A stretch of 43,020 nt of DNA from an archaeon (GCA_035256265.1 DATEYJ010000020.1:1-43020), one strand, 5' to 3'. Positions 13,818 through 38,251 are shown, counted from the stretch's first letter. Notes: generated by a model not told the origin, from the letters alone. A program made the numbers and translations.

Positions 13818-13839
13818 CGTGCATGGATAATAACTTATT

Positions 13840-14436
13840 ATGCCAAGGAAAGGTGCCATAGAGCTCAGCCTCGGTTTCATAGTGACTGTTGTTTTTGCGG
13901 TTGTATTGCTGAGCCTGGCGATAGTGTGGCTTAATAGTATTTTCCCCACGCTTTTTGGCATAACGGACGATTTGTTCCAGCAGGCCCAGACACAGATCCA
14001 GGAAACGTTCCAGAAATCGGAAAACAATTTTGCAGTCTGGCCACCCAAATATGATCTTGCCAGAGGGCGGGAGCTGAAGATGGCCGCAGGGATAGAGAAT
14101 GATGCCGGTGATGCTAACACTCATCGGTTTGTTATTAATGTTATTCCTGCTACAGCCAGCGATAGTGTCTGCTCCGGAGGAGAGCTGGATGCATGCGGTA
14201 ACCTCAAGGCAGAGATGCAGAGCTGGATTACGTGGGACAGGCAGTCAAGCAGCATTGAGATAGACAGGGTCGGCTACAGGTGGATAATTATAAATCCACC
14301 TTCCAGCACAAAACTTGGAACTTACATATTCAACGTCGTTGCATGCAAGGAACCCATTACAACTGCTTCAGCATGCACGCTTGAGACCCTTAACTGGGGT
14401 GGCAGCGCCCAGCAGTTTCAGATAACCCTCAAATAG
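13840..14436 (+). CDS. archaeal type-IV-pilin-like protein with a class III signal peptide (198 aa)
   Basis: N-terminus MPRKG/AIELSLGFIVTVVFAVVLLSLAIVWL: basic leader, Gly at -1, an acidic residue early in the mature part, then a hydrophobic helix (DUF361/PF04021-type pattern). The globular C-terminal domain has 4 Cys. Confidence 0.7.
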   Translation: MPRKGAIELSLGFIVTVVFAVVLLSLAIVWLNSIFPTLFGITDDLFQQAQTQIQETFQKSENNFAVWPPKYDLARGRELKMAAGIENDAGDANTHRFVINVIPATASDSVCSGGELDACGNLKAEMQSWITWDRQSSSIEIDRVGYRWIIINPPSSTKLGTYIFNVVACKEPITTASACTLETLNWGGSAQQFQITLK

Positions 14437-14437
14437 A

Positions 14438-14446
14438 TTTTTTCTT
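14438..14446 (+). terminator. oligo-T tract (TTTTTTCTT) immediately after the stop at 14436
   Basis: Archaeal terminators are typically T-runs. A TATA box for the next gene follows. Confidence 0.35.
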
Positions 14447-14488
14447 CAGTTCGCCTTCTATCCATATGCAGCTTCCATCTATCCCGGA

Positions 14489-14497
14489 TTATATATT
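14489..14497 (+). promoter_or_regulatory. TATA box (TTATATATT) for a leaderless transcript starting near 14519
   Basis: The box centre is 26 bp upstream of the ATG at 14519. Confidence 0.5.
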
Positions 14498-14518
14498 CCA
14501 GCTAACCAATACTATGGT

Positions 14519-15001
14519 ATGGACGTCTCACTGATTTTCGGGATAATATTCACGCTCATTGTCATCGGTCTGCTCCTTGTCTTCGGAGGGGAGCAGATTG
14601 CCAATATCCTTGGTTTCGGAGGGCAGGCCCAGGTCCTGAAAACAATGGACAACCTGAAGAACAAGGTTGATGACATATACCGCCTCGGAGAGGGCTCGAG
14701 CGAGCAGTTCACGCTCTCTTTCCCCAAGGAGTACAGGCTATGCTTCTTCAATTCCTCGAACCCCGCAGACAGGTTCTATTCCGATAAGTCCATGACGTGG
14801 GACCCAGACTCGACCGTGAAATACGTTATAAACGCAAGCCGCTTCAACGTCTGGTACCACAGGGGTGAGGATGATGCAGCAGGGAGCGGGAAGAGTATTC
14901 CCTACCTAGAGATGCCCACGGAGAATAACTTCTGCGCCACGGGAGGAAAGAAGGTCTACATAGTCAAGAGATACGACTGGGTCGAGGTAGAACCGTTTTG
15001 A
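14519..15001 (+). CDS. pilin-like protein with an N-terminal hydrophobic helix (160 aa)
   Basis: N-terminus MDVSLIFGIIFTLIVIGLLLVFGGEQ, followed by a globular domain. Confidence 0.6.
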   Translation: MDVSLIFGIIFTLIVIGLLLVFGGEQIANILGFGGQAQVLKTMDNLKNKVDDIYRLGEGSSEQFTLSFPKEYRLCFFNSSNPADRFYSDKSMTWDPDSTVKYVINASRFNVWYHRGEDDAAGSGKSIPYLEMPTENNFCATGGKKVYIVKRYDWVEVEPF

Positions 15002-15006
15002 GAGAG

Positions 15007-15043
15007 GAGGCGGCAACATTGCGGGCAGAGCTTGCCGCCTCCG
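15007..15043. repeat. extended hairpin related to the GAAGGCGGC family (GGAGGCGGCAA-N15-TTGCCGCCTCC)
   Basis: 11-bp perfect stem with a 15-nt loop, in the 67-bp gap between genes 14519..15001 and 15069..16214. Confidence 0.65.
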
Positions 15044-15068
15044 GTATAGAGCCCGCTAAGGGTGAAAT

Positions 15069-16214
15069 ATGCTGGCTGTCCACAGGATTTTCCAGATGAT
15101 CTTCGGGATAATAGTGTCAGTTACACTTCTTTACTTCCTCATAAGCTATTCCGGGGACTACCAGTGCACGCAGAAGGACCTGCAGAGGGCGAAGATACTC
15201 AAGGCCTTCTCTGACCAGTCCAGGGATGTCTACCTTACAGGGATATCCACCAACTTCACTCATTTCTCCAGATATAACTTCTCCTCCTGCTACATAAAGT
15301 TCCAGGATAGGGACGTACCGCAGATGGAATGCGTGGGCTCTGACACCTCCTGCCATGGTGTACAGGTTTCGGGAATTCCCATAGAGACCCCTGCACTGTT
15401 CTATCCGGGAAAGGAAGTCTACATGGGAAGGGACACCCTGGATTACGGCTGGTGGGCCTTCAATATAGTGGAGGCGATGCCGGACACCGTCTTTGTCTTC
15501 GATCCTATAGAGGGGACGGAGGAGAACTGGCAGGTCATGAGGGATATAGTGGAGCACCTGCCTGACACCTCTGACGACTGGAGTGTTGTGGAGGTCGGAT
15601 TTGCCTTCTGCGACGGGTCTGAGATACTTAATGTGTGTGGGGGGCAGCCATGCAGCAAGCAGGAGTTCCTTTCCGTTCTTGACGCGCCGCCTTCTGCCAC
15701 GTCCAGATGCACGGCAAGCCTGAAGGCCAACATGAGGCTTGTCACGATATCCAATTCGTGCAGCAACTCCTTCACGGAGAGAGATGTGTGCATAATCCCT
15801 CCGAATTCAAAGGGTGTGGGGAACGCCTTCCTTGTGGGCTCTGCAAAGGCCTATGTATGGAAGGACCCGCTTGACTTGGTGTCCCTTGCCCTAGGCGGCT
15901 CCGGGAAGGATGATTTCGGCAAGACCGCGGGAGAGAGACTTTACAGCTACAAGAATTCCCTGCTCATGGGAAAGCTTTCCCTTGCCTCTGAAATGATGTC
16001 AAAGAGGTGCGTCCTGGTAGCGGGGAAAATCCCGGAGGAGACAGGATGCGGCTCTGTATACATAGAGCTTTCCCAGGTCCTTGACAGGATTCCAGGAAAG
16101 GACTACCAGAGCCTTTCAGATATGTACGAGCTGAATGACAGGCTGAATGAGGCAAAGGCACTTTACCAGAGCCTTGTTGAAAAGGGATGCGAGAGGAGTG
16201 AATATGGAATGTGA
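15069..16214 (+). CDS. membrane-anchored or pilin-like extracellular protein (381 aa)
   Basis: N-terminus MLAVHRIFQMIFGIIVSVTLLYFLISY. GGTGA Shine-Dalgarno-like motif 5 nt upstream. Cys-rich globular part. Confidence 0.6.
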   Translation: MLAVHRIFQMIFGIIVSVTLLYFLISYSGDYQCTQKDLQRAKILKAFSDQSRDVYLTGISTNFTHFSRYNFSSCYIKFQDRDVPQMECVGSDTSCHGVQVSGIPIETPALFYPGKEVYMGRDTLDYGWWAFNIVEAMPDTVFVFDPIEGTEENWQVMRDIVEHLPDTSDDWSVVEVGFAFCDGSEILNVCGGQPCSKQEFLSVLDAPPSATSRCTASLKANMRLVTISNSCSNSFTERDVCIIPPNSKGVGNAFLVGSAKAYVWKDPLDLVSLALGGSGKDDFGKTAGERLYSYKNSLLMGKLSLASEMMSKRCVLVAGKIPEETGCGSVYIELSQVLDRIPGKDYQSLSDMYELNDRLNEAKALYQSLVEKGCERSEYGM

Positions 16215-16722
16215 GATTCTCGGGGCAAGAGTCCCGAGCAGCCTGAAAGGCCAGTCCGAGATGATGGAGCACATACTCATGGTAGTATTCATAGTGGCAG
16301 CCATACTTGCCCTGATACTCTTCCTCACATGGTGGAATGTCCAGCAGCTGAACATGGAGGCCTCCAGGAACAGGCAGGACAGGATACTTGACCTGGCCCA
16401 GCATATGATGGGGGATTACCTACTCGTGAACGAGAACTACATGCTTGACGATGCGAAGCTCACCTCGGTAAATGCGGTTTCTGGATGCGAGAAGCTCGAG
16501 AGGCTCTTTGGGACGGACTGGTACGCAAGGGTAAGGGCCCTGGACATGGAGGATGAGATTCCGTGCACGTGGAATAATTATCCTGACTGCAATTCCTGGA
16601 CCATATGCAGCTATCCGGAAGAGAGAAGGAACGTCCTTGTGCAGAAATTCCCTGCAAATGTTTACAGGAAGGTCTCGGACAAAGTAGCGCTGGCTGTATT
16701 GGAAGTGGGGGTGTACTCATAA
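16204..16722 (+). CDS. class-III-signal pilin-like protein (172 aa)
   Basis: Start at MECEILGARVPSSLKG/QSEMMEHILMVVFIVAAILALILFL. This is the same KG/Q-[SA]-E motif as gene 17405. Overlaps the upstream gene by 11 nt. Confidence 0.6.
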   Translation: MECEILGARVPSSLKGQSEMMEHILMVVFIVAAILALILFLTWWNVQQLNMEASRNRQDRILDLAQHMMGDYLLVNENYMLDDAKLTSVNAVSGCEKLERLFGTDWYARVRALDMEDEIPCTWNNYPDCNSWTICSYPEERRNVLVQKFPANVYRKVSDKVALAVLEVGVYS

Positions 16723-17330
16723 TGAGCTGCAAAACAAATGAATGGTATGATGAAGGTGGAATTTCAAGCGTCCAATCAAATTCCGCCTTCCGTCATAACC
16801 GCAGCAAGGTGCATGCCTTGAGAGCGCAAAGCAGCATGATATTGATAATAATCGTGCTCATGATGTTCGTGGCCATAGCCGTCTTCCTGCTTCAGGTGGC
16901 GAGCACTGTGAGCAACCAGGAATACACGGTCCTTTACGCGAACAGCCTCCTTCTGACTGTGATGAGGACGGACACGGGATATACGGACTCCAGGTGCAAG
17001 CTTGTGTCCGACCTCGTTGTGTGCGCATGCTTCACTCCTACATGGCGATGCGGAGATATTGAATGCGCGCAGCTCGCCAATGAAACTCTGGCAGGGTATA
17101 TGGATGTCTTTGGCAACCAGACAACTCATTTAAAATATCTTTTCACGTCCACCTCGCAGGCCCACTGCATAGACTCAGAAGGAAATTCCATGGCACTGGA
17201 AATCGGGGATAAGACTCTGAAAAAATCCAGGGAGACATTCAAGGTATTCTCTTATCCTCTCACTATTCCTAAGACTTTTGACTACAATTCGTATATTATG
17301 ACAATGCAGTTGATAATTGCAAATAAATAA
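16722..17330 (+). CDS. membrane-anchored or pilin-like protein (202 aa)
   Basis: The start overlaps the upstream stop (TAATG). It has a ~38-aa polar leader, then MILIIIVLMMFVAIAVFLLQVAS. The extracellular part has 5 Cys. Confidence 0.5.
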   Translation: MSCKTNEWYDEGGISSVQSNSAFRHNRSKVHALRAQSSMILIIIVLMMFVAIAVFLLQVASTVSNQEYTVLYANSLLLTVMRTDTGYTDSRCKLVSDLVVCACFTPTWRCGDIECAQLANETLAGYMDVFGNQTTHLKYLFTSTSQAHCIDSEGNSMALEIGDKTLKKSRETFKVFSYPLTIPKTFDYNSYIMTMQLIIANK

Positions 17331-17350
17331 ATGAACCGGATTCAGGGTAT

Positions 17351-17375
17351 TTTTCTGCATATTTTTTCTGCATAT
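17351..17375 (+). repeat. tandem direct repeat TTTTCTGCATAT x2 (period 13) abutting a TATA box
   Basis: Copies at 17351-17362 and 17364-17375, read directly. Lies in the 59-74 bp gap upstream of gene 17405. Confidence 0.7.
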
Positions 17376-17383
17376 TATATATA
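17375..17383 (+). promoter_or_regulatory. TATA box (TTATATATA) for a leaderless transcript starting near 17405
   Basis: The box centre is 26 bp upstream of the ATG at 17405. This favours 17405 over the ORF-track start at 17390. Confidence 0.5.
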
Positions 17384-17404
17384 CCAAGAATGACAATTAT
17401 TAGT

Positions 17405-19231
17405 ATGGCTAAGGGCCAGGCGGAGTTCGCAGTAATCATAGGGATAGTTATCGTCGCAGCTGTGGTTATTATTTATGCGCTCCCTAACATCACGAATCCT
17501 ATCATCCCTTCGGGGAAGTATGGAATGTTCAAGGCCTCCTTCGAGAGCCTCGTGCGGGACGGGGCGCAGGACACCATGAGCAGGCTCTCTGCTTACGGAG
17601 GCTATCCTGACAACTCCTCCTTCCAGCTCGGCTCTGTTTCTTTCCTCGGAAAGGAGGTTCCCTACTGGCAGAAGGACGGGAGTGTAAAATACCCGAATGT
17701 GAAGGACAATTTTGTCCAGGGAGTTTCTAGCTATCTTTCCAAAAACAAGGAAGGCTTTCTCCAGGAGATGAAGATGGCAGGCCTGGAAATTGGAGAGCCC
17801 AGGGTGAGCGCGAACATGCTTGCGAGCAAGATAATCATAACCGTGAACATGCCGACCAAGATAGACGGGACCAATTATCCGCAGCCTTATACCGTGGAAA
17901 TCCCGTCAAGGCTCGGGGAGATAGAGGAGTTCTCCAAGGCGTTCGCGCAGTATGACAAGAACAGCAGGCCTTTGGAGTACTATACGCTCTCCTCCATGAT
18001 AATAAGCCCTATGGAGGAGGATGTGCACAGCGTTCCCATACAGATATTCCTGACAGAGTGCGGAGAGTACGTGTTCAGGAGCTGGTGGGACATAAAGCCC
18101 AGCCTGGAGAATGTGATAAAGGCCACGCTCGCCCAGACCTACATGCCCGGGAAGGCTCCCCTGAACACCATGATGACCTCATCCTCGCCAAAATATTCCC
18201 TTGTCCCTCTTAACGGGAAGAGGTATGAGTCTCTTGATGTTAGTTTCTTCCTTCCTGACAATTTTGAGCTCACGCCCGCTGACTTCCAGTTCTCCCCTGA
18301 CCCCATAATCGCAATCTCACAGGTGATACCCATGGTGGGGCAGTGCCAGTCAGACCCTGTATATGTGAAATACTACCTCTCCTATCCAGCCATAGTGAGG
18401 GTGAAGGACCCGCTCACCCAGAATGTGTTCCAGTTCGCTGTCCATGTGTACATAGAGGATAACAAGCCCGGGGACTGGTCCGGAACTGGATATGAGACTG
18501 ACGTCCAGAAGCAGATATGCTCGAATCCCCAGTGCTCTGCTGACATCTCCCTGAAGGACAGCCTCGGGAAACCGGTAGATTATGCGGCTGTCAGCTTCAT
18601 GGGATGCAGCTTGGGAAGGACGGATTCCCAGGGTATTCTCAGGGTTCCTGCCCCGTGCGGGCTAGGGCCGCTTCAGGTTTACAAGCAGGGATATGAATCC
18701 TACGGGAGGATGCAGTCCTCTGACAGCATACGCGGGCTTTCCCTAACCCTTGCAAAAACCCCGGCAATCAGGCTCCATCTTTACGAGGTGATTGTCCAGA
18801 ACATCTCCCTCAACGGGAAGTATGACATCTCCCAGGACGGGATAAGCCCGATAGCTACGAACAGGCTCGTGTACATGAACCTGTATGACACGACCAATGT
18901 CAAGGCTTACCAGAGGGGTTTCAGCGCGGCAGGGAACCTGCTGAACTCCATGCCTGCAGGGCCTTACATAATCACGGCAAGCCTGATCTCCGCAGGCGGG
19001 GAAGAGCTCGGGGCGATTCTGGTGGACTACACGCTTTCCGAGAGCCTGGACGGGAAGGACCTTTATGTGTACCTTCCAGACAGCCTGGACTACGGGAAGA
19101 TAACGGACGAGGCAGAGAAGGCGGGCGCCACGGTGACGCTCACGAACGTGCTCACGAAATGCGGGCTTGGCCCCATCTCTCTCTCAGAAGTGAACTTTAA
19201 CGGATGCTCGGTGGGATACAATGAAGTTTAG
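17405..19231 (+). CDS. large class-III-signal pilin-like protein (608 aa) with a carboxypeptidase-regulatory/PEGA-like beta domain
   Basis: N-terminus MAKG/QAEFAVIIGIVIVAAVVIIYAL (DUF361-type). An internal segment DISLKDSLGKPVDYAAVSFMGCSLGRTDSQGILRV...QVYKQGYESY resembles CarboxypepD_reg/PEGA folds. Confidence 0.7.
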   Translation: MAKGQAEFAVIIGIVIVAAVVIIYALPNITNPIIPSGKYGMFKASFESLVRDGAQDTMSRLSAYGGYPDNSSFQLGSVSFLGKEVPYWQKDGSVKYPNVKDNFVQGVSSYLSKNKEGFLQEMKMAGLEIGEPRVSANMLASKIIITVNMPTKIDGTNYPQPYTVEIPSRLGEIEEFSKAFAQYDKNSRPLEYYTLSSMIISPMEEDVHSVPIQIFLTECGEYVFRSWWDIKPSLENVIKATLAQTYMPGKAPLNTMMTSSSPKYSLVPLNGKRYESLDVSFFLPDNFELTPADFQFSPDPIIAISQVIPMVGQCQSDPVYVKYYLSYPAIVRVKDPLTQNVFQFAVHVYIEDNKPGDWSGTGYETDVQKQICSNPQCSADISLKDSLGKPVDYAAVSFMGCSLGRTDSQGILRVPAPCGLGPLQVYKQGYESYGRMQSSDSIRGLSLTLAKTPAIRLHLYEVIVQNISLNGKYDISQDGISPIATNRLVYMNLYDTTNVKAYQRGFSAAGNLLNSMPAGPYIITASLISAGGEELGAILVDYTLSESLDGKDLYVYLPDSLDYGKITDEAEKAGATVTLTNVLTKCGLGPISLSEVNFNGCSVGYNEV

Positions 19232-22200
19232 GATAATCGCTCTGGAGACATTTGCGATATTCGTCTCATACCTGGTCTTCTCCCTGACCATGGTCGCAGC
19301 CACTGACGTGAACATAATGTTCAATGGGGTGGTCCAGGACACAGCAAAGTATGACCATGAAAAGATAATAAACCTCCAGGTATCCACCAAGCACGACCCG
19401 AATGATGTGACATGGACGAACATAAAGCTTGCGGTCATGGTGAACAGCGCCAGCCTAAGCCACAGCATAAAGAAGATATACCTTTACAAGTGCAGGAGCG
19501 TCACCCCGACAGAATGCGTGCGCTCCACGCCACAGGTGTTTGACAATTACGCGGACACTGAGCTGCTCTGGAATGACATATACGAGAAGACAGGCCCTGC
19601 CCAATACCCGCAACTGGCCAACCTGCTCTTCCTGGTGAAGATGGAGGACCTGAACAAGAAGGAGAGCTGGGTTGGTATGTTCACCCAGACCAGGAGGACA
19701 AACTACAACATCTTTGACACGCAGCAGCTGAGCGTGCAGAGCATAGACCTGTACGCAAAGTCCTTAGACCTCGTGGAGCCCATAAAGGCCTACATAGAAA
19801 ACAAGTTCATGATTCCATTCAAGTGGGTGAGCAAGGCTGTGTTCTCAGGCTCCACCCAGCTTTACGGCATGGGAGCGGACAGCCAGGATCTGGAAACACC
19901 TACCATCCAGACAGCCGTGGTCACTGGTAACGAGATAACGAACATAAACAAGGAGTTCTACTTCGTCTCCCCGAAGATCAGCTCAGGGATAGCCAGCCCC
20001 ATAACCCTTAACCTGAACCCTTCATTTTCCTGCGGGAACAGCGTGTGCGAGAGCGACATAGGGGAGACCACGAAATCCTGCTGCTATGACTGCGGCTGCG
20101 GGCCCGGCCAGTTCTGCGATACCGCCTCTAACATAAACCTGAGCGCGTGCAAGGATGACGGCCAAAGCCTTTCCGTAATCTCAGCCTCATCCCAGCCCAT
20201 CTCGGACTGCGCAAAGGGCTTCAACGCCAACATCTCTGTCCGCGTGAGCAACCCTCCCGCGAGCCTTAGCTCCCAGCTCCAGGGGACTGTCTCCCTCAAC
20301 AAGACGCTTTATAGCGTGACGTGCTCGGGAAGCTCAGGCTCATATGAGTGCACGATTCCCCTTACCTCGAACATAAAGTGCGGAAGCGGCTCCTATGTGA
20401 TAGGCCCGGGCATCCTCAACCTCACGATAAGCTACAAGGACGGCCCCAACTCCGCGAGCAAATCCTTGAGCGCCTCCTTCTCCGGCGTCTCGGTCAGCTA
20501 TGACTGCAAGTGCCAGGACGGCTCCTACTGCGACTCGCTCAAGAAGACCTGCCAGTCCGAGGCCGCAATCACACTTGGCATAACCAAGCTCACCTCCTAC
20601 TTGGATAATTACAATCCAGGGGACAGGATAAGCCTTACCGCAAAGATATTCAACCCGCCCGCAGGCCTTGTCCTGGTGGACAAGAGCGCCACCATGAACC
20701 TCACGAACGGCCAGGTAGCCCCGGGAACCCCGGACTGCTCAGCCCCCAATTCCCAGTTCGAGTATAATTGCACCATACCCTTCCAGATATCAAACTACCA
20801 GAAGACCCAGGCCTACACCTTCAATCCAAACACCCTTCACTTCACAATCACATACAATGACGGCCCGCTCGCCAAGACCAGGACCATCTCAGCTCCTTTC
20901 GGCCCCGTGAGCATACCCTCCCAGTACTGCGGGGACAGCCAGTGCAACATGGGAGAGAGCCAGGCCACGTGCTGCCTGGACTGCGGCTGCCCGAGCCCCG
21001 GGACCCAGTACTGCGACAAGACCTCGGGCTGCAGGAATCTTGATTCCCTATCCATATCCGTGAACTCGGTAAATCCCGTGAACTTCACGGACTGCAGGCA
21101 GGCCCATGCGGTCTACCTCACGATCCCTGTCGCGAACGCCCCCACTGACATCAGCCTTGACTACTTCGCGTACATGCAGAACGGCCTTGTGAAGGGCTGG
21201 CAGATGAAATGCGACAAGGTCGCTGTCAGCATATTCAACTGCACGCTCGTGATCCCCGCGCTTGAGAGCGAGGGCTGCTCCCTTCCCTACAAGACCATAA
21301 GCGGGAACTCCATAAACATGACCATCTCATTCCCTGACGGGAAATCCAAGCAGATAGTCAGGCACCTTAACGCGCCCTTCCAGGACCTTTATGTGACTCC
21401 CGTATACCACTGCGGGGACGGCACGTGCGAATCCTCGCTTGGAGAAAATCCAAGCGTGTGCTGCTATGACTGCCCATGCAAGGACTCCTCCTCTTTCGGG
21501 GAGGACTACTACTGCGACTTCGACCAGCAGACCTACCTGGGCGGCTGCCTTCCCAAGTCCAGCATCTCTCTTGTTATAGACTCCCCCAAGGTCACTGTCT
21601 CCCTCACCAGCTGCGAAATCACGAACAGCGTGAATGTCAAAGCCCATATAGAGAACCAGCCCGGGAGCGCGAGGCCCCAATACTTCTACGCCACCATAAA
21701 TGGCACTGCCGCTGAGATGGTGCACTGTGACCAGGAGCAGGCCTTCCAGGGAGGCAACCTCAGCTTCAACTGCACGCTCATGCTTCCCAGGATATACATG
21801 TGCTCCCAGGGCCAGACCTACACCTTCTCTCCAAACGCCCTCTCCGTCCTCCTAAGCTACCAGAACGGGAAGCAGAAGACTGAGACACAAACCCTCTCGG
21901 CCCCCCTGCCCACCATCATAATCAGGCAGGGCATCCGCTCCCTTTACGACATCACCCAGGAAGGGATAGCCAAGATGAAGCAGAGGCTGTACAGGACAAT
22001 AGAGATAGCGAGGGACCTTTACGGCGCAATCAAGGACTGCATGGAGACTGTCAAGACCCTGGTATACCTCCAGCTTGTCCTCACCATCGCAGGGGCTATA
22101 GCAGGCTCAGCTAGCACCGATACTCAAATTAAAACCCCTCAAGGTGGATATGCATCAGATCCTTTTTCGAAGGCGGTAGCCGGCGCTTACGTAGGAAGCC

Positions 22201-22991
22201 AGATAGGCGGCAGCCTCGTGCAGTCATACTCGAAGCTGTGCGAATTCCTCCAGGCCCAGTACCGCATCGACCTGGAGATACAGAACATGGAGATCAAGAT
22301 GATAAACATGGAGATGTGCATGGAAGTCTATCAACACCAGCTTGACATAGGGCGGTGTGACAAGTCTCCGGAATCCTGCTTCACCAGCATAACGTCATGT
22401 GTGAACACCGGCCTGAGCGACGTGAGCTCCTCCGCGGACAAGCTGAGCGACATAGTGAGCAAGGCCACCAACAGCCTCCAACAGAGCACATCAATACTGG
22501 GAAGCGTGTACAACTCGGTTGGCATAGTAACCGGGTCATCCAGCTCGGGCGGGACTACATCTATCCAGATGAGATGTGATGAAAGGCAGCTTGAGTGGAG
22601 CGGCGACTCCTGTTGCAATGTTAGAGGAAGTGCCACAACAACCACAACCGGCACCACAACCACATATGAATGCAAGGATAAAAAAATCCTCAGCTTGTTC
22701 ATAGCAAACAAGGCACAGAATTGCAGCGCCCTCATAACCGAACAATGTAAAGAAGATGGTAGTAGTTGCTTTATGTATAAAGATGGCGCATGGTCCGTAG
22801 ATGTAGATAAGTTGATAGACAAAACAACTACGTTAGGCTTCAAGTTCTACTGCTATAACAACAATAATGAGTATAACACAGATACGGAGACTGGCAGAAC
22901 CAAACATATGATAAGTGCGTCAAGTGGCGATAAATACTATAAAATCGAATTAAAGAAAAACGATGCTTCAAAGGTCACGTGCAATTGCTAA
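19221..22991 (+). CDS. 1256-aa modular cysteine-motif surface protein with a late TM helix and a Cys/Thr-rich tail
   Basis: Overlaps the upstream gene by 11 nt. Signal/anchor MKFRIIALETFAIFVSYLVFSLTMVAA. Four modules begin with a CG[DN]xxC...GE....CC.DC.C....YCD-type motif (one degenerate). Each is followed by a beta domain containing [YF][EN]CT[IL]. Hydrophobic helix LVYLQLVLTIAGAIAGSA. Tail contains TTTTTGTTTT and many Cys. Confidence 0.8.
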   Translation: MKFRIIALETFAIFVSYLVFSLTMVAATDVNIMFNGVVQDTAKYDHEKIINLQVSTKHDPNDVTWTNIKLAVMVNSASLSHSIKKIYLYKCRSVTPTECVRSTPQVFDNYADTELLWNDIYEKTGPAQYPQLANLLFLVKMEDLNKKESWVGMFTQTRRTNYNIFDTQQLSVQSIDLYAKSLDLVEPIKAYIENKFMIPFKWVSKAVFSGSTQLYGMGADSQDLETPTIQTAVVTGNEITNINKEFYFVSPKISSGIASPITLNLNPSFSCGNSVCESDIGETTKSCCYDCGCGPGQFCDTASNINLSACKDDGQSLSVISASSQPISDCAKGFNANISVRVSNPPASLSSQLQGTVSLNKTLYSVTCSGSSGSYECTIPLTSNIKCGSGSYVIGPGILNLTISYKDGPNSASKSLSASFSGVSVSYDCKCQDGSYCDSLKKTCQSEAAITLGITKLTSYLDNYNPGDRISLTAKIFNPPAGLVLVDKSATMNLTNGQVAPGTPDCSAPNSQFEYNCTIPFQISNYQKTQAYTFNPNTLHFTITYNDGPLAKTRTISAPFGPVSIPSQYCGDSQCNMGESQATCCLDCGCPSPGTQYCDKTSGCRNLDSLSISVNSVNPVNFTDCRQAHAVYLTIPVANAPTDISLDYFAYMQNGLVKGWQMKCDKVAVSIFNCTLVIPALESEGCSLPYKTISGNSINMTISFPDGKSKQIVRHLNAPFQDLYVTPVYHCGDGTCESSLGENPSVCCYDCPCKDSSSFGEDYYCDFDQQTYLGGCLPKSSISLVIDSPKVTVSLTSCEITNSVNVKAHIENQPGSARPQYFYATINGTAAEMVHCDQEQAFQGGNLSFNCTLMLPRIYMCSQGQTYTFSPNALSVLLSYQNGKQKTETQTLSAPLPTIIIRQGIRSLYDITQEGIAKMKQRLYRTIEIARDLYGAIKDCMETVKTLVYLQLVLTIAGAIAGSASTDTQIKTPQGGYASDPFSKAVAGAYVGSQIGGSLVQSYSKLCEFLQAQYRIDLEIQNMEIKMINMEMCMEVYQHQLDIGRCDKSPESCFTSITSCVNTGLSDVSSSADKLSDIVSKATNSLQQSTSILGSVYNSVGIVTGSSSSGGTTSIQMRCDERQLEWSGDSCCNVRGSATTTTTGTTTTYECKDKKILSLFIANKAQNCSALITEQCKEDGSSCFMYKDGAWSVDVDKLIDKTTTLGFKFYCYNNNNEYNTDTETGRTKHMISASSGDKYYKIELKKNDASKVTCNC

Positions 22992-25290: not shown

Positions 25291-25312
25291 GAAGGCGTCC
25301 GCTGACGCCTTC
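25291..25312. repeat. GC-rich hairpin family member (GAAGGCGTC-CGCT-GACGCCTTC)
   Basis: Perfect 9-bp stem with a 4-nt loop, in the 38-bp gap between convergent genes 23857..25281 and 25320..27020. The 5' flank is GGCTG. Confidence 0.8.
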
Positions 25313-25319
25313 TGTCAAG

Positions 25320-27020
25320 TTAGTAGAAATCCTCGTCAGAGAACTCGTCCTCTTCCTTGTCCCCGCCCTCTTCCAGCTCTTCTTCTCCCGCATCCTTCTT
25401 CTTCCTGAACTTCTTGAAGAGGAAGAACCCCACCAGAGCTGCTGCAGCCACTCCCCCACCTATCAAGGATATTGTTACTATGTCAGGGCCCGGAGGCGTT
25501 TCGGGGATTTCGCATATGTTGCTGCTTGAGCATGTCTCTCCTGCATTGGTGCAGTCGCTGTCCGCGCAGCATTCCACACATGAGCCCCCGCAGCACACGC
25601 CTCCTGTGCATGAATCACTATCGCTCTTGCCTTCGCATTCCAGGGGAGGCGATATATTGGATTCGCACTTCTTGTCTGCTGTGCAGTATTCGTCCGTTCC
25701 TGTGCAGTCAAAAGAGGTGCAGCACTCCCCTCCGGATATGCACGAGCTATCGCAGCATATACCATCCGTGCCGCAGGAGTTCAGATTGGCCTTGCCTTCA
25801 CACTCGCCTGCCTGGATGCACTTGTACTCGGAACTGCATGTTCCGGAGATGCAGTTCAAATCGCTGCAGCACTCCACCGCACCTATTATGCATGTTCCGC
25901 TGCAGCATCTTCCCCCGAGGCACAGCTCCAGATCATCCTTCCCTTCGCACGTTACTGACTGACCTATGACGCTTATCTTGAATTCCAACGGTATCGGGAA
26001 CTGCATGATATCAGAGGACATGGTCGCTGTCGTGGAGATGTTGGTGTCGGACTGTATATTCTTCAGGGTGATTGAAAGGAACGTGCTCTCGTTCGGCCTG
26101 AGGATTGTGCTTTCGGCGCTTATGCTCAGGTATCTGCTTACGTCAACAGGCTCTGAGGGGAGAATAAAATCTATCGCGGTTATGTTCTCAGTCCCTGTGT
26201 TGGTCAGCTTGAACTTCTTGAGCGTGAAGGTCTGGCCGGAGTTTATGGTGGTTGAATAGCTTATCTTGCTTACTACCTGGCAGGTGGTCCCTGTGCAGGA
26301 CTCCAGCCTTATGTCCCCCACGGGGACTGTGCCGCCTCCCACTGCGATTTTCGAGACGCTTCCACCGAAATCGCCGCCAGCGTTGATTGTGAATTCTATG
26401 TAGTAGTTACCGTCGGGAAGTGTGAAGTTGCTTGATATGTATTTCAGGTATTGCGGGTTGTAATTCATGTACCCAGCCTTTACCTCACCAAGCGTGTCTG
26501 CCGAATATATCTTGTAATTCATCCTGCTGGCCGCGCTGGCTGCCACCGCTGACATGTAAACCGTCTTGTCTATCACGTCCACGCGGGGAGTTATCGTTAT
26601 CCCTCCTACATAAAGCTCTTTCGTGCTGTTCAGGGTCTGGCCATACTTTATGGCATTGACCTCTATAGTATAAGGAATCCCGTACGTGGGCGAGGGGAAG
26701 AGGCTGGGACCGCATATGTCTGTTTCTGTGTTGGAAAAATAGCACACCCACCTGTTGTTCGTGTCCCTCGGGGGGAAGCCTCCAATACCTCCCTCTATCC
26801 CGTAAAATATCCAGTTGAGGCTCACGGGCTCCGTGGGCAGGGCATTGGGATTGGCTATTATCAGAAAGCTCGAGTTGACTGAGAGGTTCGAGGGTATTAT
26901 GGTGATTTCAGGTGGGTCTATAGCCCTCACGCCTGGCAGGAACAGAAACGCAGCAAACGCTAGAATCCAGTAGTATTCTGGCCTGAAGGTGGCAAAGCCG
27001 CCTTCTTTCCAACGTGTCAT
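25320..27020 (-). CDS. surface protein with a triple CEGK cysteine-knot-like repeat, TM anchor and acidic cytoplasmic tail (566 aa)
   Basis: Signal YYWILAFAAFLFLPGVRA, followed by beta domains. Three ~45-aa repeats CEGK..[LS].C..G.CC...C...ECC...DC......C. TM helix IVTISLIGGGVAAAALVGFFLF followed by KKFRKKKDAGEEELEEGGDKEEDEFSDEDFY. Confidence 0.75.
   Translation of the reverse strand: MTRWKEGGFATFRPEYYWILAFAAFLFLPGVRAIDPPEITIIPSNLSVNSSFLIIANPNALPTEPVSLNWIFYGIEGGIGGFPPRDTNNRWVCYFSNTETDICGPSLFPSPTYGIPYTIEVNAIKYGQTLNSTKELYVGGITITPRVDVIDKTVYMSAVAASAASRMNYKIYSADTLGEVKAGYMNYNPQYLKYISSNFTLPDGNYYIEFTINAGGDFGGSVSKIAVGGGTVPVGDIRLESCTGTTCQVVSKISYSTTINSGQTFTLKKFKLTNTGTENITAIDFILPSEPVDVSRYLSISAESTILRPNESTFLSITLKNIQSDTNISTTATMSSDIMQFPIPLEFKISVIGQSVTCEGKDDLELCLGGRCCSGTCIIGAVECCSDLNCISGTCSSEYKCIQAGECEGKANLNSCGTDGICCDSSCISGGECCTSFDCTGTDEYCTADKKCESNISPPLECEGKSDSDSCTGGVCCGGSCVECCADSDCTNAGETCSSSNICEIPETPPGPDIVTISLIGGGVAAAALVGFFLFKKFRKKKDAGEEELEEGGDKEEDEFSDEDFY
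26985..27005. repeat. GC-rich hairpin family member (GAAGGTGGC-AAA-GCCGCCTTC) inside codons 6-12 of gene 25320..27020
   Basis: 9-bp stem (one G.T pair) with a 3-nt loop. It encodes KEGGFATF on the minus strand. The 5' flank is TCTGGCCT. Confidence 0.7.
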
Positions 27021-28345: not shown

Positions 28346-30055
28346 TTATTTCAAGCACGCTTCCAAAAATCCCCTGAAGAGCGGATGCGGATTTATCGGC
28401 CTGGAAGTGAGCTCTGGGTGGAACTGCGTGCCCAGGAAGAAACGTTTGTCCGGAAGCTCGAGTATCTGCATGATCTTCTTCTCAGGGGCGCGGCCCGAGA
28501 ATACCATGCCGTTCTTCTCCAGGGCCTCTATGTACTTGGTATTCACGTTCCACCTGTGGCGGAATCGCTCCCTCGCATGGTCCTTCCCGTAAAGCTTGTG
28601 GGCAAAGGAGCCTTTCTCTATTGCCAGGTCGAAGCCTCCGACCCTCATTGTCCCTCCAAGGCCCTTTATCTCCTCCTGCTCGGGAAGTATGCAAATCACG
28701 GGATGCGGGGTCTCGTCATCTATCTCAGTGCTGTTCGCTCCCTTCAGGCCGCACACGTTGCGGGAGAATTCTATCACAGCCATCTGGAAGCCGAAACAGA
28801 GACCGAAATACGGGAGGTCGTTCTCCCTCGCGTAGCGTATGCACTCTATCTTCCCTTCTGTTCCTCTCTCCCCGAAGCCTCCGGGGACTATTATCCCGTC
28901 CATCCCTTCCATCTTCTGCTTCACGTTATCTCTCGTCACGTTCGTGGCCTCTATCCATTTTATGGTCGGCTTGGCTCCCACGTAAGGGGCCGTGTGCTCT
29001 ATGGCCTTGAGTATGCTCAGGTAGGAATCATGGACAGAGGTGTACTTGCCCACTATCCCGATTGTGACCTCCTTTTTCGCGGAGTTTATTTTCTTTACGA
29101 GCTCCTCCCACTTGTGGTACTCTTCCCTGCTGTTCCCCTCCCTCTTCCCGAGCTTCAGGATCTTGATTATCTCCTCGTCCATGCCCGCATCCTTCAGGAA
29201 GAGCGGGATTTTGTAGATGTTGTCTATGTCGTAGCAGTTTATCACCCGTTCCATGGGCACGTTCGAGTATATGCTTATCTTCTCCCTTATCTTGTCGCTC
29301 ACGGGAGTCTCGCTCCTACATATGACTATGTCGGGCTGTATCCCCATGCCCATCAGCGTCCTGAGCCCGAGCTGCGCGGCCTTGCTCTTGTGCTCTCCAA
29401 GAGAGTGGGGCTGAAGTATGTAGGTGACTGTTATGAAGCACACGTTCTCCTTCCCCTCCTCATAAGCGAGCTCCCTCATGGCCTCCATGAAGTATGAGTT
29501 CTCTATGTCCCCCGCCGTCCCCCCGACCTCCACCATGACTATGTCCGCATCCGAGCCCACGGCAAGGCTCCTGAGGAAGCCCTTTATCTCCCCTGTCACG
29601 TGAGGGATGAACTGGACGTCGCGGCCAAGGTACTTGCCGGCCCTCTCCTTGTCTATTATTGTCTTGAATATCTTCCCTGAGGTGAGGTAGTTGCTCTTGG
29701 AGAAGGAAGTGTTCATCATCCTTTCATAGGTCCCGAGGTCCAGGTCGCACTCTGTCCCGTCATCCAGCACGAACACCTCCCCGTGCCTGTATGGATTAAG
29801 AGTCCCTGCGTCATAGTTCAGATAGCCGTCAAACTTTATGGGGGATACCTTGAACCCGTGGAAGAGCTTGAGGAGCGTGCCCACGGAGGAAGATATCGTG
29901 CCTTTGCCCACTCCGGAAATAACAGTTCCTGTTATGACCACGTACTTCGTCCGGCCTTTCTGGTAGCCCTTGGGGAAGGAAGTGAAGAACTCGCTCTCGT
30001 CCGTCTTCTTGGAAACGGCCTTGAACATCTCATGCGCATCAGGGGAGTCTGGCAT
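28346..30055 (-). CDS. pyrG: CTP synthase
   Basis: N-terminal synthetase P-loop region KYVVITGTVISGVGKGTISSS. Glutamine amidotransferase motifs GIIVPGGFGERG, GLCFGFQ and QFHPE. Has a ~35-aa N-terminal extension relative to the usual start. Confidence 0.95.
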   Translation of the reverse strand: MPDSPDAHEMFKAVSKKTDESEFFTSFPKGYQKGRTKYVVITGTVISGVGKGTISSSVGTLLKLFHGFKVSPIKFDGYLNYDAGTLNPYRHGEVFVLDDGTECDLDLGTYERMMNTSFSKSNYLTSGKIFKTIIDKERAGKYLGRDVQFIPHVTGEIKGFLRSLAVGSDADIVMVEVGGTAGDIENSYFMEAMRELAYEEGKENVCFITVTYILQPHSLGEHKSKAAQLGLRTLMGMGIQPDIVICRSETPVSDKIREKISIYSNVPMERVINCYDIDNIYKIPLFLKDAGMDEEIIKILKLGKREGNSREEYHKWEELVKKINSAKKEVTIGIVGKYTSVHDSYLSILKAIEHTAPYVGAKPTIKWIEATNVTRDNVKQKMEGMDGIIVPGGFGERGTEGKIECIRYARENDLPYFGLCFGFQMAVIEFSRNVCGLKGANSTEIDDETPHPVICILPEQEEIKGLGGTMRVGGFDLAIEKGSFAHKLYGKDHARERFRHRWNVNTKYIEALEKNGMVFSGRAPEKKIMQILELPDKRFFLGTQFHPELTSRPINPHPLFRGFLEACLK

Positions 30056-33823: not shown

Positions 33824-35482
33824 TCAGTAGTCTTCCATCCCGCCGCCCGGGCCTCCCGGAGGCATGGGAGGCATCTTGCCGCCTCCTGAGCCGGAGGCTG
33901 AGATGACATCATCTATCCTTAATATCATCTCAGCTGCCTCTGAAGCGGACTTTATCGCCTGCGTCTTTATCTTCAGCGGCTCTATCACCCCGAGCTTTAT
34001 CATGTCCTGCACTTCGCCTGAGAATACGTCCAGCCCGAACGTGACGCCCTTCTTGTCGTGCTGCGACCTCAGGTTCGCGATCTTGTCTATCGGGTCAAGC
34101 CCTGCGTTCTCGGCAAGGCTCCTTGGTATCACTTCCATGGCTTCTGCAAAGGCATTTATGGCGAGTTGCTCACGACCCTTGAAAGACTCGGCGTATTTCC
34201 TGAGCTCCCTCGCGACCTCTATCTCAGCCGCCCCGCCTCCTGCCACTATCTTGCCAAGCTCCAGGGCAGCTGCTATCCCCTTTACCGCGTCCTCCATGGC
34301 CCTCTGCACCTCGTCTATCACGTGCTCTGTGCCTCCCCTTATGAAGATGGTCACGGCCTTGGGCTGCTGGCACTCCTCCACGAAAATCATCTGGTCCCCA
34401 GCGATCTTCCTCTCCTCCACGCGGCCCGCATATCCCAAGTCGCTCTTGGAGAGCTCGTTCAGGTTGCTCACTATGCTGGCTCCGGTTGCGCGGGCCAGGG
34501 CCTCCATGTCCGATTTCTTCACCCTCCTGGCCGCAAGTATCCCGGCCTTTCCCATGAAGTGCTGCGCCGCATCGTCTATGCCCTTCTGGCAGAAGACCAC
34601 GTTCGCTCCGGACTTCACGACCTTGTCCACCATGTCCCTGAGCATGCGCTCCTCCTGCTCTATGAATGCCTGCATCTTCTCCGGGGAGTTTATGCTTATC
34701 TTGGCATCCCCCTCCAGCTCCTTCACCTCCAAGGCGGAGTCTATGAGCGCGACCTTGGCCTTCTCTATCTTCTTTGGCATGCCTGAATGCACGACCTCCT
34801 TGTCTATGAGCACGCCGTTTATGAGCTGGCTGTCATTTATGGAGCCGCCCTCCTTCTTCTCGAGCTTTATGTTATCCACATCTATGCTCACGACCGAGCC
34901 TTTGACCTCCGCGATCTTCTTTATGGCCTTGACCGCGATGTCTGCCAGCTCCTCAGAAGCCTTCTCAGCGGACTTCCCTGTTATGGCTGTGTTGGCTATC
35001 TGCCTGAGGCTGGCCTCATCATTGATGTCAATCTTCCTTGAGATGTTGTTCAGGACCTCAAGAGCCTTCATCTTGGCCATCCTGAAGCCCTTGGTTATGA
35101 CAGTGGGGTGTATCTCCTGGTCCAGAAGGTCTTCCGCCTTCTTGAGCAGCTCCCCGGCAAGCACCGCCGCCGTTGTTGTCCCGTCACCAACAATCTTGTC
35201 CTGGGTCTTGGCCACTTCCACCATCATCTTCGCTGCAGGGTGCTCTATGTGCATCTCCTCGAGTATGGTCGCCCCGTCATTAGTTATGACCACATCACCA
35301 AGGGTGTCCACGAGCATCTTGTCCATGCCCTTGGGCCCCAGCGTGGTCCTGACTGCGTCAGCCACCGCCTTGGCGGCGGCTATGTTCGACCTCTGGGCGT
35401 CCCTGCCCTTGCTCCTGAATGTCCCTTCGGGCAGTATCAGAATGGGCTGCCCGCCTATCTGCGCAAATCCTGCATTTACCAT
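33824..35482 (-). CDS. ths: thermosome subunit (group II chaperonin)
   Basis: [45 protein letters not shown] and the C-terminal [10 protein letters not shown] tail. Start set at MVNAGFAQ (35482), which is preceded by a GAGGTGA Shine-Dalgarno-like motif. Confidence 0.95.
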
Positions 35483-35641
35483 ATCATTCACCTCTCTTGG
35501 AATCAAACATGAGCGTATGCCTTGAGGGCAAAACGCATAGTATATCTAGCTGATTAACTTATAAATGCTTTGCTATGAAGAAGGGTTTTTATAATCATTC
35601 CGTCACATATAACTACAATTGCCTGAAGGTGAATTGAGTTG

Positions 35642-35663
35642 GAAGGCGTCCGCAGACGCCTTC
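35642..35663. repeat. GC-rich hairpin family member (GAAGGCGTC-CGCA-GACGCCTTC)
   Basis: Perfect 9-bp stem with a 4-nt loop. First unit of the array upstream of the tRNA. Confidence 0.8.
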
Positions 35664-35697
35664 GGGCCATTGTCGCCTTCTAGCCACAAACCGGAGT

Positions 35698-35719
35698 GAA
35701 GGCGACAAGAGTCGCCTTC
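35698..35719. repeat. GC-rich hairpin family member (GAAGGCGAC-AAGA-GTCGCCTTC) followed by TAGCCA
   Basis: Perfect 9-bp stem. An extra unpaired copy of the 3' arm plus tail (GTCGCCTTCTAGCCA) lies at 35672-35686. Confidence 0.8.
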
Positions 35720-35737
35720 TAGCCAGAACGAGAGATT

Positions 35738-35767
35738 GACGGCTTTATCCAATAGGCACAAGCCGTC
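35738..35767. repeat. related hairpin (GACGGCTT-N14-AAGCCGTC) followed by TAGCCA, 5 nt before the tRNA
   Basis: 8-bp stem. The tail CGTCTAGCCA matches the two upstream units. Confidence 0.6.
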
Positions 35768-35807
35768 TAGCCATTAATGGGCTCGTAGCTCAGTCGGTAG
35801 AGCGCCG

Positions 35808-35876
35808 AACGCGCTGGATTGAAAGAATGAAGGCGACAAAAGTCGCCTTCTCTCTAAGAATCTCGTGCGTGCGCAG
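35808..35876 (+). other. tRNA intron 1 (69 nt, position 29/30) with a full hBHBh' motif
   Basis: Outer helix 35799-35801/35878-35880. Central 4-bp helix GCGC 35802-35805/35871-35874. 3-nt bulges at 35806-35808 and 35875-35877. Inner helix 35809-35814/35865-35870. The intron carries hairpin 35829-35850. Confidence 0.75.
35829..35850. repeat. GC-rich hairpin family member (GAAGGCGAC-AAAA-GTCGCCTTC) inside tRNA intron 1
   Basis: Perfect 9-bp stem. The flanks CTGGATTGAAAGAAT...TCTCTAAG resemble those of copies at 38230 and 33570. Confidence 0.8.
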
Positions 35877-35885
35877 GTCTTATAA

Positions 35886-35925
35886 GGCCCGCTTCCGCTC
35901 TGTGGAGGCGTTGCATGGCGTAGAA
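35886..35925 (+). other. tRNA intron 2 (40 nt, position 38/39, or equivalently 37/38 shifted by one A) with a relaxed BHB
   Basis: Central helix TTAT 35880-35883 pairs with GTAG 35920-35923 (2 WC + 2 G.U). Good 5' bulge AAG at 35884-35886. Inner helix GCC 35887-35889/GGC 35917-35919. The 3' site sits in a 2x1 internal loop rather than a clean bulge. Confidence 0.55.
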
Positions 35926-35946
35926 GCCGAAGGTCCTGGGTTCGAT

Positions 35947-35988
35947 GTGAGACAGAATGTGTCAAGAGACACCTTCCTTCCACGAACT
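35947..35988 (+). other. tRNA intron 3 (42 nt, T-loop position 59/60) with a BHB motif
   Basis: The T stem 35936-35940/35990-35994 acts as the outer helix. Central helix TTCG 35941-35944/CGAA 35983-35986. Bulges ATG 35945-35947 and CTT 35987-35989. Internal hairpin GTGTC-AAGA-GACAC at 35959-35972. Confidence 0.7.
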
Positions 35989-36029
35989 TCCCAGCGAGCC
36001 CATTTATTCTTTTCTTCCAAGAATGTCTT

Positions 36030-36371
36030 ATGAGCAAAGTCGGTGAATGGGCAAAGGAGAACAAGAATCTCCTTTTGAAGTCAGGAATCTTTGCGGGCGC
36101 AAGCTTCCTGGATTATTACCTCACGGATTTGGGAATAGCAAAGGGGAGGATAGAAGAGATACATCCTGTTGTTAGTTCTTACCTTAGCATGTACGGGAAC
36201 ATGGGCCCCTATCTATTGAAGGGCATTATGACTGCTGGCGGAATCTTCGGCATGTATCTTACGGATAAAAATCCTGAGAAAACGAGATATACAAGCAACC
36301 ATGTTTTCTGCATAGGGACAGGCGCTTATTTTACCGCTTCTGCCGCCTGCCTCTACCACATCCTGCGCTAG
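36030..36371 (+). CDS. small multi-pass membrane protein (113 aa)
   Basis: Hydrophobic segments IFAGASFLDYYLTDLGI, LLKGIMTAGGIFGMYL and CIGTGAYFTASAACLY. No motif recognised. Confidence 0.5.
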   Translation: MSKVGEWAKENKNLLLKSGIFAGASFLDYYLTDLGIAKGRIEEIHPVVSSYLSMYGNMGPYLLKGIMTAGGIFGMYLTDKNPEKTRYTSNHVFCIGTGAYFTASAACLYHILR

Positions 36372-37824: not shown

Positions 37825-37845
37825 GAAGGCGGCGAAGCCGCCTTC
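37825..37845. repeat. GC-rich hairpin family member (GAAGGCGGC-GAA-GCCGCCTTC) between rpl21e and rpoF
   Basis: Perfect 9-bp stem with a 3-nt loop, in the 72-bp intergenic spacer. Confidence 0.75.
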
Positions 37846-38229: not shown

Positions 38230-38251
38230 GAAGGCGTCTCTTGACGCCTTC
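38230..38251. repeat. GC-rich hairpin family member (GAAGGCGTC-TCTT-GACGCCTTC) between pus10 and rpl21e
   Basis: Perfect 9-bp stem with a 4-nt loop. The 5' flank CTGGATT is identical to that of the intron copy. Confidence 0.8.

Follow-up and report, generated by a model that had tools for sequence, protein, structure and literature searches.

The stretch of DNA analysed here, 43,020 nucleotides (nt) from an archaeon (GCA_035256265.1 DATEYJ010000020.1:1-43020; the whole stretch is termed the window herein), contains at positions 35779 to 36002 of the plus strand a locus of 224 nt that gives a tRNA only when three blocks of sequence are taken out of it. This raises the question of whether the locus is a working gene for an isoleucine tRNA with a UAU anticodon, tRNA-Ile(UAU), whose three inserts are introns, or whether it is something else, such as the remains of a tRNA gene. 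Our analysis leads us to the first answer: 35779 to 36002 is very probably a functional, hitherto unannotated tRNA-Ile(UAU) gene with bulge-helix-bulge (BHB) introns at tRNA positions 29/30, 38/39 (which gives the same product as 37/38), and 59/60.

The locus consists of four exons and three introns of 69, 40, and 42 nt (151 nt in total), all on the plus strand. Exon 1 (35779 to 35807) supplies positions 1 to 29 of the tRNA, with the acceptor 5′ strand, the D arm, and C27, C28, and G29. Exon 2 (35877 to 35885) supplies positions 30 to 38, with G30, U31, and the anticodon loop CUUAUAA, in which the anticodon UAU lies at 35881 to 35883. Exon 3 (35926 to 35946) supplies positions 39 to 59, with the anticodon stem 3′ strand, the variable loop AGGUC, the T stem 5′ strand, and the T loop up to U59, and exon 4 (35989 to 36002) supplies positions 60 to 73, with U60, the T stem 3′ strand, the acceptor 3′ strand, and the discriminator A73; CCA is not encoded at its 3′ end. 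Re-joining the exons reproduced exactly the intron and exon coordinates and the 73-nt product of the original prediction, which had been made from the sequence of the window. ARAGORN called the 73-nt join tRNA-Ile(tat) with an ordinary cloverleaf, in agreement with the predicted identity and the predicted loop CTTATAA; the acceptor, D, anticodon, and T stems have 7, 4, 5, and 5 bp, respectively, and the anticodon loop has 7 nt. All of the conserved tRNA nucleotides T8, A14, G18 G19, A21, T33, and C61 and the pair G15/C48 are present in the spliced 73-mer, and its T-loop region has the conserved G53 T54 T55 C56 G57 A58.

None of this is visible before splicing. ARAGORN found no tRNA in the unspliced window, and Rfam found none in the unspliced DNA, either in the window at gathering thresholds or in 35500 to 36300 with E values up to 10. 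The top Rfam match near the locus, ATPC (E = 0.0098), is far below threshold and was set aside as a chance fit to hairpins. No second tRNA-like 5′ block or T arm was found in the window. An open reading frame (ORF) of 96 amino acids that runs over the locus on the minus strand (35774 to 36064) was treated as spurious because the differences in intron length between strains are not multiples of three. Folding of the 224-nt precursor gave a z score of −5.8 in comparison to shuffles, and in the minimum free energy (MFE) structure the inner helix of intron 1 is formed together with the acceptor, D, and T stems.

An independent validation of the intron-1 and intron-2 junctions comes from the intron-less tRNA-Ile(GAU) genes of two other archaea, with which the spliced RNA agrees at 20 of the 22 positions from 27 to 48; only position 27 and the wobble position 34 differ. 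For a tRNA-Lys that has an identical 5′ 26-mer, the agreement is 14 of 22. Over the whole spliced body, identity to intron-less tRNA-Ile(GAU) is 65/73 (L023) and 61/73 (L002; loci found in the searches described below are designated by L numbers), values that are biased in the 5′ half, from which the search pattern had been drawn.

Splice motifs and their conservation in orthologs

The splice sites were analysed with a BHB scanner that looks for an outer helix (h), a 4-bp central helix (H), two 3-nt bulges that are cut after the second base, and an inner helix (h′). Intron 1 (35808 to 35876, plus strand; site 29/30) has a strict hBHBh′ motif, in which h is AGA/TCT (3 bp), H is GCGC/GCGC, the bulges are CG↓A and AG↓G (arrows mark the cuts), and h′ is ACGCGC/GTGCGT (6 bp); H and h′ are both formed in the local MFE structure. 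Intron 3 (35947 to 35988, plus strand; site 59/60) has an hBH-type motif, in which the 5-bp T stem, CTGGG/CCCAG, serves as h, H is TTCG/CGAA, the bulges are AT↓G and CT↓T, and h′ has 2 bp only. The BHB geometry of two opposite 3-nt bulges and a 4-bp H is exact in both introns, and our own scan agrees with the motifs that had been proposed for them.

Intron 2 (35886 to 35925, plus strand) lies in the anticodon loop and has a relaxed, HBh′-like BHB motif, for which 38/39 is the best register. Its H is TTAT/GTAG (U33 to U36 with GUAG, including two G-U pairs), its 5′ bulge is AA↓G, and its h′ is GCC/GGC (3 bp), beyond which follows a 9-bp hairpin whose two strands covary among orthologs. The BHB geometry is kept in the 5′ bulge and in H, and the 3′ site is a 1×2 or 2×3 internal loop. 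Junctions at 36/37, 37/38, 38/39, and 39/40 are all sequence-compatible and give an identical product, and a 4-bp H is formed in 38/39 only. The motif of intron 2 is a BHB moved one base off the canonical register, with C32 opposite a two-base bulge at the 3′ site.

Introns 1 and 2 each end in 6 to 7 nt that are a near-copy of the exon sequence at the 5′ splice site, in register with it. For intron 1, the two segments are 35802 to 35808 and 35871 to 35877 (GCGCCG↓A and GCGCAG↓G), and for intron 2 they are 35880 to 35886 and 35920 to 35926 (TTATAA↓G and GTAGAA↓G); the cores of these near-repeats are palindromic or partly so. An origin of the introns by duplication at a palindromic target, with the H helix arising automatically, is possible, if purely conjectural.

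Orthologs were obtained from two scans. A genome scan with the 26-nt 5′ end returned mainly unrelated tRNAs that share the 5′ half (from Acidobacteriota and other bacterial genomes, together with Lys, Ala, and Ile(GAU) genes of other archaea), and L019 was the sole ortholog among them. A metagenome scan with GCGCNNGTCTTATAAGGCC returned at least 120 loci; the automatic parse of 120 of these was crude, with some rows mis-parsed, and counts taken from it are lower bounds. At least seven distinct relatives have three introns at the same three sites (L001/L056, L057, L086, L092, L116, L019/L138, and L074), and their exons are identical to those of the window or have one base changed. Exon 1 differs by a single base in L116 and L074, exon 2 is invariant in all orthologs, including the loop CUUAUAA, and exon 3 is identical in seven distinct three-intron orthologs. 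The introns of the orthologs range from 30 to 104 nt (intron 1), 36 to 69 nt (intron 2), and 39 to 132 nt (intron 3) and differ in sequence as well. Five relatives (L142, L060, L151, L050, and L062) have two introns, at 29/30 and 38/39 only, and L103 and L105 have introns in the D arm, at 38/39, and at 59/60. A second Aenigmatarchaeote lineage, which was found by gene order alone (L152 and L155 to L157), arrives at the same loop in the mature tRNA from a strict canonical motif at 37/38 (CTTA/TAGG, h = 5) and has a 53/54 intron as well.

The helices of the splice motifs covary. For the intron-1 motif, 94.5% of the cells in an alignment of 14 orthologs pair, and 7 of 13 pairs are changed on both sides; the covariation score was reached by none of 500 shuffles, and controls with slid partners lose pairing. 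Compensatory changes in H were found in L153 (3620 to 3909, plus strand; JADHWJ010000004.1, GCA_016783545.1), from GCGC/GCGC to GTGT/GCAT in intron 1 and from TTCG/CGAA to TTCA/TGAA in intron 3, the exon-encoded half of H being changed and the intron compensating. L153 is an ortholog with four introns, at 29/30, 38/39, 45/46, and 59/60, and its spliced 76-mer was called tRNA-Ile(tat). The 45/46 intron has a relaxed motif, in which H pairs at 3 of 4 positions and h′ = 4. Archaeal tRNA genes are stated to have a maximum of three introns each (PMC4033280, PMC8450103), and the four introns of L153 are one above this published maximum.

For intron 2, the TTAT/RURR pairing, the AA↓G bulge, and GCC/GGC are kept in 13 close or middle-distance relatives with the exception of L060, in which the insertion of a hairpin element leaves GAAG, with 3 of 4 positions pairing. 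The inner hairpin of intron 2 varies in sequence among the relatives and keeps its pairing. In the parsed distinct metagenomic tRNA-Ile(UAU) genes, the strand facing U33 to U36 reads GUAA in at least 21, GUAG in at least 10, AUAG and AUGG in at least 2 each, and AUAA and AUGA in at least 1 each. It is purine-U-purine-purine throughout and always pairable, and the variation is one-sided. The original prediction had described the intron-2 motif as relaxed, which was borne out, and had named its 3′ site as a weak point; from its conservation in relatives, the relaxed motif is a conserved variant and no weak point.

Putative transcription unit, hairpin repeat, and host

A candidate TATA/B recognition element (BRE) box, TTTTTATAATC, is located at 35586 to 35596 (plus strand), where its conservation suggests a promoter role. 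The ATAACTACAA box at 35609 to 35618 (plus strand), which has a fixed spacing from the TATA-like box in orthologs, is the probable transcription start region. In orthologs for which the fetched upstream sequence reaches the motif, TTTATAA(C/T)C lies ∼12 to 14 nt upstream of ATAACTACA (comparison set L057, L086, L092, L116, L019/L138, L074, L142, and L151), and the pair is kept irrespective of the upstream neighbour gene. The distance from the ATAACTACAA box to the tRNA 5′ end ranges from 16 nt (L086) to ∼160 nt (window), and the difference between the two consists of hairpin elements. The putative 5′ leader of the window gene (35619 to 35778, plus strand) contains hairpins at 35642 to 35663, 35698 to 35719, and 35738 to 35767, each followed by TAGCCA or a relative of it; in orthologs, the leader is short or differently filled. 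A nearer promoter at 35744 to 35751 (CTTTATCC) was considered and rejected in favour of the distal motif, since it coincides with the loop of a hairpin element whose position is different in L057. Downstream of exon 4, the T-rich tail TTTATTCTTTTCTT (36003 to 36016, plus strand) is a probable termination signal: a T-rich run is the usual archaeal termination signal, and one follows A73 in most orthologs, weaker in L086 (CTCCATTATTTC).

In several Aenigmatarchaeota, the tRNA gene lies, in either orientation, between a thermosome gene and a CBS-DUF655-Rpb4-L21e-Pus10 cluster. A conserved promoter-like block, GCATTTATAAGTTAAT..GGTTACATATACTATGC (35537 to 35572, minus strand), precedes the thermosome gene of the window; the same block is 3′ of the tRNA in L057, L092, and L019.

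The hairpins in the leader belong to a dispersed family. The pattern GAAGGCGNC-N4-GNCGCCTTC has 8 matches in the window, compared to 0.24 expected. The family has a 9-bp stem formed by GAAGGCGNC and GNCGCCTTC around a loop of 3 to 4 nt and is often flanked by CTGG..ATT and TAG/TTT..CCAG; the fuller repeat form is CTGG-ATT-GAAGGCGNC-N4-GNCGCCTTC-TAG-CCAG, with variants. Copies are located at 13641 to 13662, 25291 to 25312, 26985 to 27005, 35642 to 35663, 35698 to 35719, 35829 to 35850, 35955 to 35976, 37825 to 37845, and 38230 to 38251; most of them directly follow a stop codon or belong to the tRNA leader or to introns 1 and 3. The element resembles repetitive extragenic palindromic (REP) elements or miniature inverted-repeat transposable elements (MITEs).

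The copy that had been noticed in intron 1 is real. Its core (35829 to 35850, GAAGGCGAC-AAAA-GTCGCCTTC) is part of a 45-nt hairpin segment (35818 to 35862, plus strand) that is polymorphic between strains: L001 (at 1222 to 1233) and L056 have 12 nt (CTGGTTCCCAGT) instead of these 45 nt, with L001 sharing 99.8% identity with the window on the upstream side and 99.4% on the downstream side and L056 sharing ∼98 to 99% in the flanks. The copy in intron 3 (35955 to 35976) is degenerate. Intron 3 of L001/L056 differs from that of the window at many positions, including, in L001, a compensatory pair in the hairpin, the exons, the flanks, and intron 2 being the same. The pattern points to turnover of the element or to recombination restricted to introns. 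In L060, a hairpin element is found near the 3′ end of intron 2 with direct AAGAT repeats on either side, which look like a target-site duplication; its close relative L151 is without the element. From these comparisons, the spliced-out parts of the precursor are where the hairpin element accumulates and turns over. Two other roles of the hairpin were considered and rejected. Excision of intergenic hairpins by the splicing endonuclease EndA found no support, as 3 enclosing BHB motifs (h + h′ ≥ 8) were present and ∼4 were expected by a rough estimate. For a role as a kink-turn (K-turn) or box C/D guide, inspection by eye showed no tandem G-A pairs, and the introns are without CUGA or RUGAUGA boxes.

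The proteins encoded in the window include thermosome, TFB, Pus10, DUF655, PCNA, Taw1-like, and AspRS-type (archaeal) proteins, and Rpb4 and L21e were called on the near-identical contig L001. The window thermosome is 92 to 93% identical to NCBI proteins named Candidatus Aenigmarchaeota, and the gene order is common to the window and Aenigmatarchaeota genomes. With the thermosome closest to named Aenigmarchaeota proteins, the host is, as judged from sequence similarity, a tiny uncultured Aenigmarchaeote and thus a DPANN archaeon, DPANN being one of the two groups that the original prediction had named in connection with multiple introns. The G+C content of the host is 52.5%. In 15 confident window genes (including 33824 to 35482, 28346 to 30055, and 4011 to 5363), AUA accounts for 254 of 351 Ile codons (72%) and for ∼5% of all codons (∼51 per 1,000), which marks the tRNA reading it as a major tRNA and no relic. 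An AUA share of 72% is unusual at a G+C content of 52.5%. Two giant ORFs are found at 6958 to 13134 (minus strand; 2,058 amino acids) and at 19221 to 22991 (plus strand; 1,256 amino acids, with internal repeats), and the scanned ORFs beside them, at 13235 to 19231, have no Pfam match.

Alternative explanations and the proposed processing pathway

Several observations weigh against a functional gene with three spliced introns. C27 stands opposite A43 in the mature anticodon stem, every other stem position being paired according to ARAGORN, and intron 2 is without an outer helix in register (h = 0). Energetically, the BHB conformers are 1.2 to 3.3 kcal/mol less favourable than the local optimum, the motif energy over the local MFE being 3.3 kcal/mol for intron 2 and 2.7 kcal/mol for intron 3. 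BHB motifs of intron-1 grade (h + h′ ≥ 9) number 78 to 106 per strand in the 43-kb window and ∼85 in dinucleotide-type shuffles. No EndA, RtcB/ligase, or TiaS was found by Pfam in 30 window ORFs, a scan that left aside the two giant and several small ORFs, and the proposed leader of ∼160 nt would have its only basis in the conserved distal promoter-like motif.

Two of these points were followed further. BHB shape as stand-alone proof was given up, since the window counts equal the shuffle counts. The chance of a motif at one prescribed splice-site pair is ∼2e-5 for a motif of intron-1 quality and ∼7e-5 for one of intron-3 quality; the non-random part is that the motifs are placed exactly where excision restores a tRNA, which the relatives confirm. 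The C27×A43 mismatch, which the original prediction had correctly noted and listed as a weak point, is kept within a subclade, and distant relatives have U27-A43 together with a U-G pair in H. The comparison points to a trade-off, in which C27 gives a perfect GCGC/GCGC H at the cost of a C-A mismatch in the mature tRNA and the U27 relatives make the reverse compromise.

If the locus were a decaying, untranscribed tRNA pseudogene that was invaded by repeats and whose inserts are not spliced, it would be expected that standard finders see no tRNA, and the dispersed hairpin repeat inside the locus, the anticodon-stem mismatch, and the frequency of BHB-like shapes by chance would fit as well. However, the exons are invariant or one base off in at least seven relatives while the inserts diverge freely, the splice-motif helices change compensatorily, and conservation extends to the promoter-like motif and the T-rich tail; moreover, with AUA at 72% of the Ile codons, an AUA reader is indispensable, and the window has no other tRNA-like 5′ block or T arm. 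We therefore regard a pseudogene as extremely improbable. The original prediction had allowed for a pseudogene or a different anticodon, and the comparative data speak against both. A different anticodon would result if the gene were functional and intron 2 were removed at other sites or by another route, so that the loop was not CUUAUAA and AUA was not read. The lack of an outer helix in register and the two G-U pairs in H could be taken in this sense, as could the results of ARAGORN with intron search on the two-intron relatives L142, L060, L151, L050, and L062, which were given Pro, Cys, Phe, Gly, and Ser anticodons. These calls, however, use single bogus introns and ignore intron 1, and public annotations of the two-intron relatives may carry wrong tRNA identities. 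In addition, the four sequence-compatible junctions give one product, the spliced positions 27 to 48 match tRNA-Ile(GAU) at 20/22, L152 with its strict canonical motif yields the same loop, and the 3′ strand of H stays purine-U-purine-purine and always pairable with U33 to U36, which makes removal of intron 2 at other sites highly unlikely.

The tRNA could also be made as described and not be dedicated to isoleucine, either because an unmodified U34 reads AUG in addition to AUA or because another synthetase charges it. Nothing in the window shows a restraint on U34, and position 34 is the main feature by which tRNA-Ile and tRNA-Met are distinguished (PMC11685878). On the other side, the body is 65/73 identical to tRNA-Ile(GAU) and A73 is present, and UAU-type Ile tRNAs function in ARMAN, Nanoarchaeum, Korarchaeum, and Mycoplasma mobile (PMC3239211, PMC6000648, PMC3575796). 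A tRNA with such mixed use seems scarcely probable to us, and charging with isoleucine and a handling of U34 that avoids AUG are predicted for the window tRNA. Comparison of the sequences thus leaves us with the functional tRNA-Ile(UAU) gene, for which it establishes the exon/intron structure, its conservation, the covariation of the helices, and the codon usage.

Transcription itself, the enzymes that act on the transcript, their order of action, and modification of U34, if any, are inferred, and we propose the following pathway. Transcription would start near 35609 to 35618 from the conserved TATA-like box and would end in the T-rich run after A73. The leader of ∼160 nt would be removed by RNase P at 35778/35779, the archaeal splicing endonuclease would cut in the 3-nt bulges of each motif, and an RNA ligase would join the four exons; since CCA is not encoded, it would be added posttranscriptionally. 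The intron-1 motif uses nucleotides 21 to 27 (the D stem 3′ strand) and 31 to 33 and is incompatible with the D stem and with the intron-2 helix (overlap at U33), suggesting stepwise refolding and splicing. Introns 1 and 3 would be removed first and intron 2 last, because the anticodon stem that presents the intron-2 motif forms only after intron 1 is gone. The mature tRNA would then decode AUA, the dominant Ile codon of the organism.

In the precursor, the intron-2 helix would hold U34-A35-U36, and the pairing strand is conserved across distant lineages. An anticodon-loop intron is present in every Aenigmatarchaeote ortholog seen, those detected by gene order alone among them, a constancy to be read in light of a metagenome sample that was selected for that intron, while the introns at 29/30, 45/46, 53/54, and 59/60 come and go. 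For the eukaryotic (yeast) tRNA-Ile(UAU), the intron is needed for pseudouridines 34 and 36 (PMC12168002, PMC9602550). By analogy, the anticodon-loop intron of archaeal tRNA-Ile(UAU) might be kept because it is required, perhaps for modification of the anticodon before splicing, a suggestion that we consider tentative and on present grounds rather doubtful.

Relation to known systems and significance

In Thermoproteales such as Pyrobaculum and Thermofilum, tRNA genes can have as many as three BHB introns each, with canonical as well as non-canonical positions (PMC4033280, PMC8450103). As in the window gene, relaxed motifs occur among them, one intron often has to be excised before the motif of the next one can form, and standard finders miss the genes (PMC4033280, PMC8450103); in contrast, the present host belongs to another phylum (DPANN), and the present introns carry a genome-wide hairpin repeat. 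The ARMAN archaea (Micrarchaeota/Parvarchaeota) are DPANN archaea, and their three lineages are reported to have tRNA-Ile(UAU) for AUA, no TiaS, and an EndA of broad specificity that cuts the relaxed hBH 59/60 intron of pre-tRNA-Cys in vitro (PMC3239211). A DPANN host, tRNA-Ile(UAU), an anticodon-loop intron, and a relaxed 59/60 intron are common to both systems, whereas the tRNA-Ile(UAU) of ARMAN-2 has one strict 37/38 intron and the window gene has three, with the anticodon-loop motif moved to 38/39. DPANN EndA variants with special loops go along with a marked rise in disrupted tRNA genes (PMC5829648).

A tRNA-Ile(UAU) gene with three BHB introns is also known from the nuclear genome of Cyanidioschyzon merolae, where the anticodon-loop intron is the last one removed (PMC3728597, PMC9602550). 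Its introns likewise lie in the D-arm region, the anticodon loop, and the T arm; unlike the window gene, however, it is from a eukaryote, the sites are in the D stem, at 37/38, and at 53/54, and its processing is known from experiments, whereas that of the window gene is predicted from sequence. Korarchaeum cryptofilum and Nanoarchaeum equitans also have tRNA-Ile(UAU), the Korarchaeum gene with an intron (PMC6000648), and share with the present host the use of a UAU anticodon for AUA instead of agmatidine-modified CAU; they are other lineages, and a single intron or none is reported for them. The rarity of tRNA-Ile(UAU) assumed in the original prediction holds among cultured archaea, but the tRNA had already been reported in ARMAN, Nanoarchaeum, and Korarchaeum, and the metagenome scan returned at least 120 loci. 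DPANN archaea were known before to have multi-intron tRNAs and to have tRNA-Ile(UAU), and no new mechanism is involved.

What the locus adds concerns annotation and intron evolution. The only tRNA gene of the window, whose product reads ∼5% of the codons in the sampled genes, is invisible to ARAGORN and Rfam, and annotations of these archaea will appear to be without a decoder for AUA. Its relaxed motifs are substrates for testing the specificity of the DPANN splicing endonuclease. The clade, in which a single orthologous gene has from two to four introns and strains differ from one another as well, is a natural series for the study of intron gain, enlargement, and retention.

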